From Escherichia coli (GTDB lineage: Bacteria > Pseudomonadota > Gammaproteobacteria > Enterobacterales > Enterobacteriaceae), in assembly GCF_001677475.2 (NCBI RefSeq), contig NZ_CP015229.1: a stretch of 64,000 bases of DNA; one strand, 5' to 3'. The position numbers and the translations under genes were made by a program. The notes under the pieces were generated by a model. That model was not told the DNA's origin, ran no database searches, and saw only the letters and a program-made list of their open reading frames with translations. Positions 16,805-18,425 of this stretch are shown here, piece after piece. Each line of letters starts with the position of its first letter. Position 1 is the stretch's first letter.

Positions 16805-16840
16805 AGCAAAGTAAAAAGCCTCGCATTCGACGAGGCTTTA
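16805..16840 (-). terminator. Rho-independent terminator after cspC
   Basis: Stem aaagcctcg/cgaggcttt with T-run on minus strand. Confidence 0.55.
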
Positions 16841-16884
16841 TAGCGAGATTGAAGCGTATTCACACTTCAGATCAGTGGATTCGA

Positions 16885-17094
16885 TCAGATAGCTGTTACG
16901 TTAACAGCTGCCGGACCTTTCTGGCCGTCCTGAATTTCGAACTCAACGTTCTGACCTTCAGCCAGAGTTTTGAAGCCATTACCCTGGATAGCGGAGAAGT
17001 GTACGAACACGTCTTTGCTGCCATCAGCCGGAGTAATGAAGCCAAAACCTTTAGACTCGTTGAACCACTTAACCTGACCTTTAATCTTTGCCAT
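16885..17094 (-). CDS. cspC: Cold-shock-domain protein CspC
   Basis: 69-aa [23 protein letters not shown] with RNP motifs. Confidence 0.95.
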
Positions 17095-17106
17095 TTGAAA
17101 AATTCC

Positions 17107-17250
17107 TTAGATTGTTTTCTTCGCCCGCAGGCATAACATAGATAAAACTGACACATTACTGCATGAGGCACCAATATAAGGCTCGGCAGAGAAGCGGTAT
17201 TCAACGTCAACGTGTTTACTCAGGACTTCTTTACTGAAAATGCCACACAT
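17107..17250 (-). CDS. yobF: Small protein YobF (47 aa), co-transcribed with cspC
   Basis: Hand translation of minus strand: [47 protein letters not shown]; absent from ORF track (below 60 aa). Confidence 0.8.
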
Positions 17251-17919
17251 AAACAGAACTGTACCTCGTTTAACCCGAAATCTGTTATCACATACAACGT
17301 TAATTATGGCAAGCCATTTTTAAACATGTCTCGATCAGACGCACAAATCTCGATACGTCTTCCACTTTTTTTGCACACTTATGCAACGGAATACGCGCCG
17401 ATATATCATTGTGCTTAACCTTGCCAGTTCAGGCAGATACTTAAACTGACGTATTTTCTAACATAGTTCAATAAGTTCAGTTGTTCCAGGCCAGTAGGAG
17501 AAGTTATTACATAGTGCGTGCAATATCACATTTTCTGCTATGCAATGAATAAAAAGTTATATCACTTTTTCTCATAAAACAGTCAGTTAACGGCCACCAA
17601 TTACCCCAAAGAGAAGTCAATCCCCAATGGTATTGTAAATTTAAAATAAGAAAAATTGATGAATGCGCAAAAAAATCAAGAGAGAAACGTTTCGCTAATA
17701 AATAATACCACGCTTAATCACAAATCCGATGTAAACATCCTAATAAATTAATGGGCTAAATATCTTTTTCTGATATCTCGTTACGCAAATAAATAATATG
17801 ATAATTATTTGAAGTCAGACCAGAGTTTTAATTTGAAGCAGTTGCACCATGACAGTGCGTATAATCAGGATGAATTGAGTAACCCTTCAACGACGGGGTT
17901 ACTCAAGATTGAGGAAGGA

Positions 17920-18207
17920 TTATCGTTCGGCGACCAGACGAATAATATCTTCGTCTTCAACCGATTTTTGACTCTCAACGGTCTTTTTATCTGCTTTCTC
18001 TGGTTCATTTGCTTCGCACAAACGACGTAACAGTGCATTTTGACGTTTTTGCTGATCCAACAACGCCTCAAGCAGTTCAATCTGTTCGTTAGTCCGTGAA
18101 CTGGCACGATTGATAAAAAACCACAAGATGAGCCCGATAAGAAGAACCACCACCGATACAACCAAAGACGCTATGTTCATCACGCCTGAATTTACAACTT
18201 CGTTCAT
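17920..18207 (-). CDS. yebO: Small membrane protein YebO
   Basis: 95-aa ORF, one N-terminal TM helix then charged coiled region. Confidence 0.8.
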   Translation of the reverse strand: MNEVVNSGVMNIASLVVSVVVLLIGLILWFFINRASSRTNEQIELLEALLDQQKRQNALLRRLCEANEPEKADKKTVESQKSVEDEDIIRLVAER

Positions 18208-18281
18208 TTCACCACCTCTGAGTAGAGGCGCTATTCTACCACTGCTGGAGAGGAAGAAAATCTAGTGCTGAAAAAATGATA

Positions 18282-18425
18282 TCACCACGGGATAAACTGG
18301 TTAATGGCACAAATTCCGCTGAAAAATTGTACATCCTGATCGCACATCATGTTGAATACCTGCGCCCAAAGCAGCAAGCAAGCCAACACCACGACAACCA
18401 GAACGACCCATCGAAACTTTTTCAC
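18282..18425 (-). CDS. mgrB: PhoQ-inhibiting small membrane protein MgrB (47 aa)
   Basis: Hand translation of minus strand from GTG: [47 protein letters not shown]; absent from ORF track. Confidence 0.85.

Follow-up and report, generated by a model that had tools for sequence, protein, structure and literature searches.

The intergenic region that separates yebO from yobF in Escherichia coli is probably ordinary control DNA that contains no unannotated gene. What is conserved in it consists of promoter elements and operator-like motifs, and the locus as a whole is real but ordinary and has largely been characterized already. The sequence analyzed here (referred to as the window) is a stretch of 64,000 nucleotides from E. 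coli contig NZ_CP015229.1. Of 5,426 complete genomes, 5,417 match the 1.9-kb portion of the window that spans the locus across 80% or more of that portion, the best of them at an identity of 99.5%.

Gene content of the locus

Four genes frame the region, all of them on the minus strand and equal to MG1655 b1823 to b1826 at a constant coordinate offset of +1890341. The first is cspC (16885-17094), which encodes a cold-shock-domain RNA chaperone of 69 amino acids (aa) and was identified both as an open reading frame (ORF) and as the counterpart of b1823; the CspC protein is 100% identical across 76 loci. It is followed by yobF (17107-17250), which encodes 47 aa with a DUF2527 domain (Pfam E = 1.7e-30) and is at the same time part of the cspA-type leader region of cspC. 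Beyond the gap are yebO (17920-18207; 95 aa), for which the ORF, the MG1655 match, and the YebO Pfam family agree, and mgrB (18282-18425; 47 aa; GTG start), which falls in the MgrB family. The latter two genes are cotranscribed, and the mgrB-yebO transcript has been reported to be polycistronic (PMC5861431). The gene placements and identities in the first-pass annotation, which had been made from the sequence alone, are right, as coordinates, strand, MG1655 match, and Pfam families all agree.

The same annotation had described an AT-rich gap of about 670 bp between yobF and yebO. This gap is real: it comprises 669 bp (17251-17919) with a GC content of 0.354, and the value falls to 0.29 to 0.34 in 200-bp windows, compared to approximately 0.5 in the flanking genes. 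The RefSeq annotations of MG1655 and IAI39 place no feature inside the gap.

Comparative map of the yebO-yobF gap

With YebO as an anchor, we retrieved 80 orthologous loci, drawn from representative genomes of Enterobacteriaceae species. The order mgrB-yebO-gap-yobF-cspC was kept in 76 of these loci. A short gap of ∼0.44 to 0.75 kb was found in Escherichia, Salmonella, Citrobacter, Klebsiella, Raoultella, and some Enterobacter, and a long gap of ∼1.46 to 1.58 kb in Lelliottia, Kosakonia, Leclercia, Buttiauxella, Cedecea, Phytobacter, and other Enterobacter. Conservation within the gap was mapped by an alignment of 77 sequences and by an independent BLAST comparison, and the two maps were concordant. 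The 100 bp that directly precede yobF (17349-17251) are near-invariant in all species (identity of ∼0.8 to 1.0). Farther upstream, two islands are conserved in many genera, namely, island B (17489-17455) and island A (17699-17650). For the remainder of the gap, neither the 77-sequence alignment nor BLAST detected homology outside Escherichia.

This remainder includes two AT-rich, Escherichia-specific spacers. Spacer 1 (17700-17870) diverges by 0.23 to 0.35 within Escherichia and contains the palindrome CGCACTGTCATGGTGCA, discussed below. Spacer 2 (17490-17649), in which no conserved element was found, diverges by 0.30 to 0.35 within Escherichia and shows an identity of 0.18 to 0.48 to other genera; its BLAST high-scoring segment pairs (HSPs) are contributed largely by the three other Escherichia, with a rise to ∼7 species near 17560-17500. 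Together, the two spacers amount to 331 bp and diverge by 0.23 to 0.35 per site from E. albertii and two cryptic clades. In the same Escherichia comparison, the third codon positions of yebO diverge by 0.24 to 0.28, and the near-invariant promoter and 5′ untranslated region (5′UTR) in front of yobF by only 0.02 to 0.06. Given the similarity between the divergence of the spacers and that of yebO third positions, the pace of change in half of the gap is roughly that of synonymous sites.

The long-gap class carries an additional gene. Of the 76 orthologous loci whose gap could be scored, 29 have a gene of ∼330 aa (here called gene X) on the same strand directly after yebO; it encodes a protein with a metallo-beta-lactamase fold (Lactamase_B_2; Pfam E = 8e-42). 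Loci with gene X still keep ∼500 bp of noncoding DNA upstream of yobF, and island A adjoins the downstream side of the gene in the genomes that carry it. The unusual length of the E. coli gap could be the scar of a gene loss in which an ancestral gene X was replaced by Escherichia-specific AT-rich DNA. The faint trace of the gene X C terminus found in some of the short Enterobacter gaps (E values of 0.2 to 0.9) points the same way; a tblastn search of the E. coli gap, on the other hand, returned no remnant of the gene (E > 0.1 throughout). We regard gene loss as a tentative account, more doubtful than probable. It concerns the origin of the gap and is compatible with its present function as a regulatory spacer.

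Hairpin and 3′ end of the mgrB-yebO transcript

At its yebO end, the gap begins with the 3′UTR of the mgrB-yebO operon (17871-17919, minus strand), which includes a hairpin. The first-pass annotation had noted this hairpin near 17878-17901. The structure is real and more stable than shuffled sequences (z = −4.1; 1 of 200 shuffles folds as well), and its stem proved slightly longer than first described, as 11 bp are formed between 17906-17896 and 17885-17875, with a ΔG of −15.5 kcal/mol. Rather than being part of the yobF leader, the hairpin belongs to yebO, lying 13 nt past its stop codon. In the portion of the Term-seq data available from Adams et al. 2021, a "primary" yebO 3′ end is listed at MG1655 positions 1908212/3. 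These correspond to positions 17871/17872 of the window, so that the mapped RNA 3′ end sits 3 to 4 nt beyond the stem.

A strong stem-loop directly follows yebO in each genus of the short-gap class, and the sequences of these stem-loops are unrelated between genera. The recurrence of such a structure in the same place, independent of its sequence, suits a role as the terminator or the 3′-end-protecting hairpin of the mgrB-yebO transcript. In common with intrinsic terminators and protective 3′ hairpins, the yebO structure has a stable stem after the stop codon and an RNA 3′ end just past the stem. Unlike in intrinsic terminators, where a U-tract is expected after the stem, the tail here is AAUUCAUCC, and the hairpin was not among the hits of the terminator scan.

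A proximal and a probable distal promoter for yobF-cspC

The near-invariant end of the gap is accounted for by a promoter (P1) and its short leader, both on the minus strand. P1 (17299-17349) is a sigma-70 promoter with a −35 element GAGACA (17332-17327), an 18-nt spacer, and an extended −10 element TGcCATAAT (17311-17303). It was found by promoter scan, gave a BLAST HSP in 76 of 76 species, and shows an identity of 0.78 to 1.00 across the 77 sequences; its core (17319-17310) is invariant in all 77, and its other positions range from 0.78 to 0.94. The conserved block upstream of P1 reads ATTTGTGCG. In Salmonella, a yobF::sfgfp fusion was cloned from the transcription start site (TSS), and the primer insert begins at GTTGTATGTGATAACAG. 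This start places the TSS at G17298 of the window and defines a leader of 48 nt (17251-17298; identity of 0.77 to 0.99 in 77 sequences) with a Shine-Dalgarno (SD) sequence, GAGG, at 17267-17264. The small RNAs (sRNAs) OxyS and CyaR have been reported to pair near the SD of this 48-nt yobF 5′UTR.

A second, distal start was located from published Salmonella data. For strain 4/74, a yobF-cspC TSS has been given at 1893683, along with two Tn5 insertions in the 5′UTR and one in cspC. The TSS and the three Tn5 coordinates are mutually consistent only with a leader of 181 to 390 nt before the ATG. In S. enterica, a start at island B predicts a leader of ∼203 nt and a start at island A one of ∼402 nt; since only the former fits these limits, we assign the distal promoter (P2) to island B. 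From the Salmonella coordinates and the conservation of the island (identity of ∼0.57 to 0.75 in the 77-sequence alignment), we infer that island B also serves as P2 in E. coli (17455-17489, minus strand). There it would consist of TGGAAC (17488-17483), a 17-nt spacer, and cTATGTT (17465-17460), with a probable TSS at ∼17454. It has only 3/6 and 4/6 matches to the sigma-70 consensus (7/12) and was not a hit of the promoter scan. The upstream part of the ∼203-nt P2 leader (17350-17454, minus strand) is mostly unconserved and diverges within Escherichia by 0.22 to 0.25, approximately the synonymous rate; it contains a conserved motif, GCATAAnTGTGCA, at 17386-17372. In all, the control region agrees with what has been described for the same locus in Salmonella, with P1 and the 48-nt 5′UTR matching the fusion design and island B matching the TSS coordinate. 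The promoter names yobFp1, yobFp2, and cspCp8 appear in the E. coli literature, and the first two probably denote P1 and P2.

Promoter readings of island A were also considered and rejected. On the minus strand, TTGAGG, 17 nt, and CATTAT form a workable promoter in some genera; in E. coli, a 4-nt deletion shortens the spacer, and in Salmonella, the implied leader of ∼402 nt is outside the published limits. On the plus strand, ATGACA, 17 nt, and AATAAA would place the operator-like palindrome at +1, and no −10 element is present in Escherichia, Salmonella, and Citrobacter.

Operator-like palindromes in the distal part of the gap

Island A (17650-17699) shows an identity of 0.45 to 0.78 in the alignment and HSPs in ∼24 species by BLAST. 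It contains a palindrome, AGCGAAACGTTTCTCT, at 17696-17681 that resembles a LacI/GalR-type operator and includes an exact GCGAAACGTTTC at 17684-17695; a second conserved block follows, which is partly degenerate in E. coli. The palindrome spans 16 bp with a central CG and matches the core of the published rbsO (TCAGCGAAACGTTTCGCTGA), the operator of RbsR in the ribose operon, at 15 of 16 positions (compare AGCGAAACGTTTCGCT). Its left half, (A/T)(G/T)CGAAAC, is kept in most genera. Unlike rbsO, the palindrome lies ∼440 bp upstream of yobF, away from any recognized promoter, and its right half, GTTTCTCT, is present only in Escherichia, Salmonella, and Citrobacter and diverges elsewhere; in the alignment, the palindrome is missing from Klebsiella and Raoultella. 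PurR, Cra, or another LacI/GalR member could equally be the partner of this candidate operator. Our literature search retrieved no paper linking RbsR to yobF-cspC and no binding data for the palindrome. One Salmonella paper reports that RbsR and CspC each restrain succinate use; the two were treated as separate pathways, and no link was drawn.

A second palindrome, CGCACTGTCATGGTGCA, is located at 17859-17843, just past the yebO hairpin, and resembles an NtrC box (TGCACCAnnnTGGTGCA), with 11 of 14 positions matched and the right half perfect. Across the window, 7 such matches were found versus 3.6 expected, such that the E. coli site alone is not significant. Several genera have similar palindromes at the corresponding position, and for the NtrC-like box, only this conserved position counts as evidence. 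A genomic SELEX (gSELEX) study reported NtrC-enhanced RpoN binding in the yebO-yobF spacer, classed as a "repressive promoter," together with nitrogen-dependent changes in yobF and cspC mRNA. The reported peak center (∼17287), however, is at P1 and not at the NtrC-like box. A scan for canonical sigma-54 promoters was uninformative, with 333 matches versus 339 expected, and none was found. Readings of the conserved blocks as Pho-box, Fur-box, or CRP-like sites were made by eye only and were too weak to retain.

On the basis of sequence, both palindromes are candidate transcription factor sites that may act on yobF-cspC. A more far-reaching interpretation is that the RbsR-like palindrome, the adjacent block, and the NtrC-like box together form an undescribed long-range control element that would couple CspC/YobF transcription to sugar/purine or nitrogen status. 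We consider this rather unlikely.

Search for sRNAs and antisense RNAs

The first-pass annotation had expected further small ORFs or sRNAs in the gap. For RNAs, the following searches lent this expectation no support. At a permissive threshold, Rfam returned nothing above the gathering cutoff inside the gap; a psRNA2 match at 17758-17904 reached 16 bits versus a cutoff of 65 and was driven by the yebO hairpin. In sliding-window folding of both strands, z scores below −2 were obtained only for windows that contain this hairpin, and no second stable structure was found. The 3′ ends nearby in the available portion of the Term-seq data (Adams et al. 2021) are the cspC terminator at 1907153, a site within yobF at 1907479, and the yebO end described above. 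Between the latter two, this portion lists no 3′ end on either strand under two conditions.

One RNA candidate is an Escherichia-specific plus-strand noncoding RNA, antisense to yebO, to the yobF-cspC leader, or to both, that would start in AT-rich, promoter-like DNA and whose level H-NS and Rho would normally hold down. Published in vitro run-off microarray (ROMA) data hint at plus-strand transcription from naked DNA, as the forward probe set for this gap (IG1905616_1906284-f) and the c2230 probe ("antisense of cspC") gave Eσ70/EσS values of 2.44 and 2.42, respectively (PMC3141248). One plus-strand promoter-like site is found at 17770-17797, and the GC content drops locally to 0.29. The ROMA signal was obtained in vitro, and artifacts from second-strand cDNA are possible. 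In the available Term-seq portion, no 3′ end is listed on the plus strand from 1907153 to 1909303, and the only terminator-like structure on the plus strand is the shared yebO hairpin, which itself lacks a T-tract. The candidate region moreover evolves at the neutral rate, with no conserved plus-strand promoter, and promoter-like sites in the gap are not raised in number (5 versus 4.2 in shuffled sequences). Such an RNA thus appears improbable.

Search for hidden small ORFs

To survey coding potential, all ORFs of at least 10 codons on both strands of the gap were scored for intactness in 45 short-gap species. None was intact outside Escherichia, except for ORFs inside the invariant P1/5′UTR block, which are explained by nucleotide conservation. 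When yobF was put through this strict test as a positive control, it proved intact in 23 of 45 species. The small-ORF conservation check that had been proposed for 17251-17919 therefore yielded no ORF of at least 10 codons kept beyond Escherichia outside this block. As far as these data reach, the gap holds no conserved small ORF and no discrete transcript beyond the yobF-cspC leader.

Within the genus, a single ORF is open in all four Escherichia, a plus-strand ORF of 22 codons at 17381-17449. It was rejected as a gene, with substitutions spread over the codon positions without bias (8/7/5), an amino acid identity of ∼50%, and no SD. A plus-strand mini-ORF running from the conserved ATGACA to the palindrome of island A was rejected as well, since its frame, length, and stop differ between genera in the alignment, which was read by eye. 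Among the entries examined in the ribosome-profiling supplement of Stringer et al., no coordinate falls in 19075xx-19082xx, and in the passages seen of an intergenic small-ORF survey covering 5,668 Enterobacteriaceae genomes, yobF and cspC are listed and no gap ORF is shown. Despite the many short ORFs in the gap, the one shared by all four Escherichia, and a locus rich in small proteins, these results leave only a very slim chance that the gap encodes a small protein, which would have to be shorter than 10 codons or lineage specific, e.g., an upstream ORF with a regulatory role in the P2 leader.

yobF as a coding sequence and possible RNA element

Outside the gap, Rfam reports a cspA thermoregulator (RF01766) at 16810-17270 on the minus strand (135.7 bits versus a gathering cutoff of 78; E = 5e-36), lying over yobF-cspC. 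Like cspA-type leaders, the region is nucleotide invariant; here, however, the leader part also encodes the genuine 47-aa YobF, and the match is carried mainly by the coding part of cspC. We compared identity to E. coli by codon position (1/2/3) in ∼70 species. The values were 1.00/1.00/0.84 for cspC, 0.78/0.95/0.60 for mgrB, and 0.76/0.87/0.49 for yebO, compared to 0.92/0.95/0.93 for yobF, which shows no relaxation at third positions and is therefore under nucleotide-level constraint. In the passages seen of the small-ORF survey, three values are given for the yobF cluster of Escherichia, 0.0034, 0.0037, and 0.917, which are probably dN, dS, and their ratio.

YobF is nevertheless a real, membrane-associated protein, and complementation of the deletion phenotype requires its start codon (PMC11429745). 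Its induction by heat and low Mg was reported to be posttranscriptional in the same study. The codon-position pattern, the Rfam match, and the 3′ end within yobF together suggest an additional, RNA-level function of the yobF sequence in the cspC leader.

Proposed organization and implications

Read in the direction of transcription, the gap can be divided as follows. The mgrB-yebO transcript ends at the stable hairpin 13 nt past the yebO stop codon, with its RNA 3′ end 3 to 4 nt past the stem. The next ∼375 bp, where our data gave no sign of a stable transcript, are mostly fast-evolving, Escherichia-only AT-rich filler, in which the NtrC-box-like palindrome and the island with the RbsR-operator-like palindrome are embedded as putative sites acting on yobF-cspC. 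The distal promoter P2 would then start the leader of ∼203 nt, and the near-invariant P1 starts that of 48 nt, whose SD region corresponds to the published OxyS/CyaR target.

As an ordinary stretch, the gap can be kept off the list of candidate new genes, and each of its parts is given either a role or the status of neutral filler. Two observations provide leads for specialists. The first is the conserved LacI-family-type operator-like site far upstream of yobF-cspC; the second is yobF itself, the synonymous sites of which are constrained as strongly as its nonsynonymous ones.

Gene content of the equivalent gap in related genera

Several genera of the Enterobacteriaceae carry a gene of approximately 330 amino acids with a metallo-beta-lactamase fold (Lactamase_B_2, HNHYDHLD motif) in the equivalent of the gap between yebO and yobF (17251-17919), immediately 3' of yebO. 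This gene lies at 3316-4317 in one orthologous locus (L029) and at equivalent positions in 28 other loci (e.g., L046, L060, L063, and L082); its carriers comprise Lelliottia, Kosakonia, Leclercia, Buttiauxella, Cedecea, Phytobacter, and some Enterobacter. A tblastn search of the E. coli gap returned no trace of it. The E. coli gap itself contains a palindrome resembling an NtrC box, CGCACTGTCATGGTGCA (17843-17859), directly past the yebO hairpin (17906-17875). At the corresponding relative position, comparable palindromes are present in E. albertii, Trabulsiella, several Citrobacter species, Pseudocitrobacter, and Superficieibacter.

At the other end of the locus, a 581-amino-acid penicillin-binding-protein transpeptidase is located downstream of cspC in Salmonella enterica (2086-3144 in locus L083), whereas the corresponding gene in E. 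coli is rlmA; synteny therefore ends immediately past cspC. The gene at 16885-17094 is named "cspE" by the NCBI pipeline in many E. coli RefSeq genomes (e.g., IAI39). Its position and its correspondence to the MG1655 gene identify it as the cspC orthologue, and the "cspE" label is an annotation inconsistency.

Transcription across the locus

In a published in vitro run-off microarray (PMC3141248), the forward-strand probe set for exactly this gap was Esigma70-preferred (ratio of 2.44), as was the "antisense of cspC" probe (16885-17094, plus strand; ratio of 2.42). These plus-strand signals possibly reflect antisense transcription over the gap and cspC; no in vivo counterpart was found among the published data examined.

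On the minus strand, published data place a separate transcription start site for yebO in the 74-bp mgrB-yebO spacer and several RNA 3' ends in the yebO interior (18027-18161), one of which the authors tied to pairing with the sRNA CyaR. A bicyclomycin-sensitive (Rho-dependent) site is also reported within yebO, at MG1655 position 1908371. Term-seq (Adams et al. 2021) additionally recorded a 3' end within yobF, at 17138 (MG1655 position 1907479). This end lies 44 nt before the start of cspC and is preceded by a U-rich stretch; it could mark a point of attenuation or of RNA processing in the operon.

Constraint on yobF

Among approximately 70 species, yobF (17107-17250, minus strand) shows identities of 0.92, 0.95, and 0.93 at codon positions 1, 2, and 3, such that the third position is not relaxed; the values for cspC, given for comparison, are 1.00, 1.00, and 0.84. 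For the Escherichia yobF cluster, the table of a survey of intergenic small ORFs in 5,668 Enterobacteriaceae genomes lists three values, 0.0034, 0.0037, and 0.917, which we tentatively interpret as dN, dS, and dN/dS, respectively. The yobF Shine-Dalgarno sequence (GAGG, 17267-17264) precedes the ATG by 13 nt, an unusually long spacing, and the stretch from this element to the ATG (17251-17267) is invariant throughout the genera compared. On the codon-position identities and the survey values, constraint on yobF appears to act on its RNA or DNA as well as on the protein.
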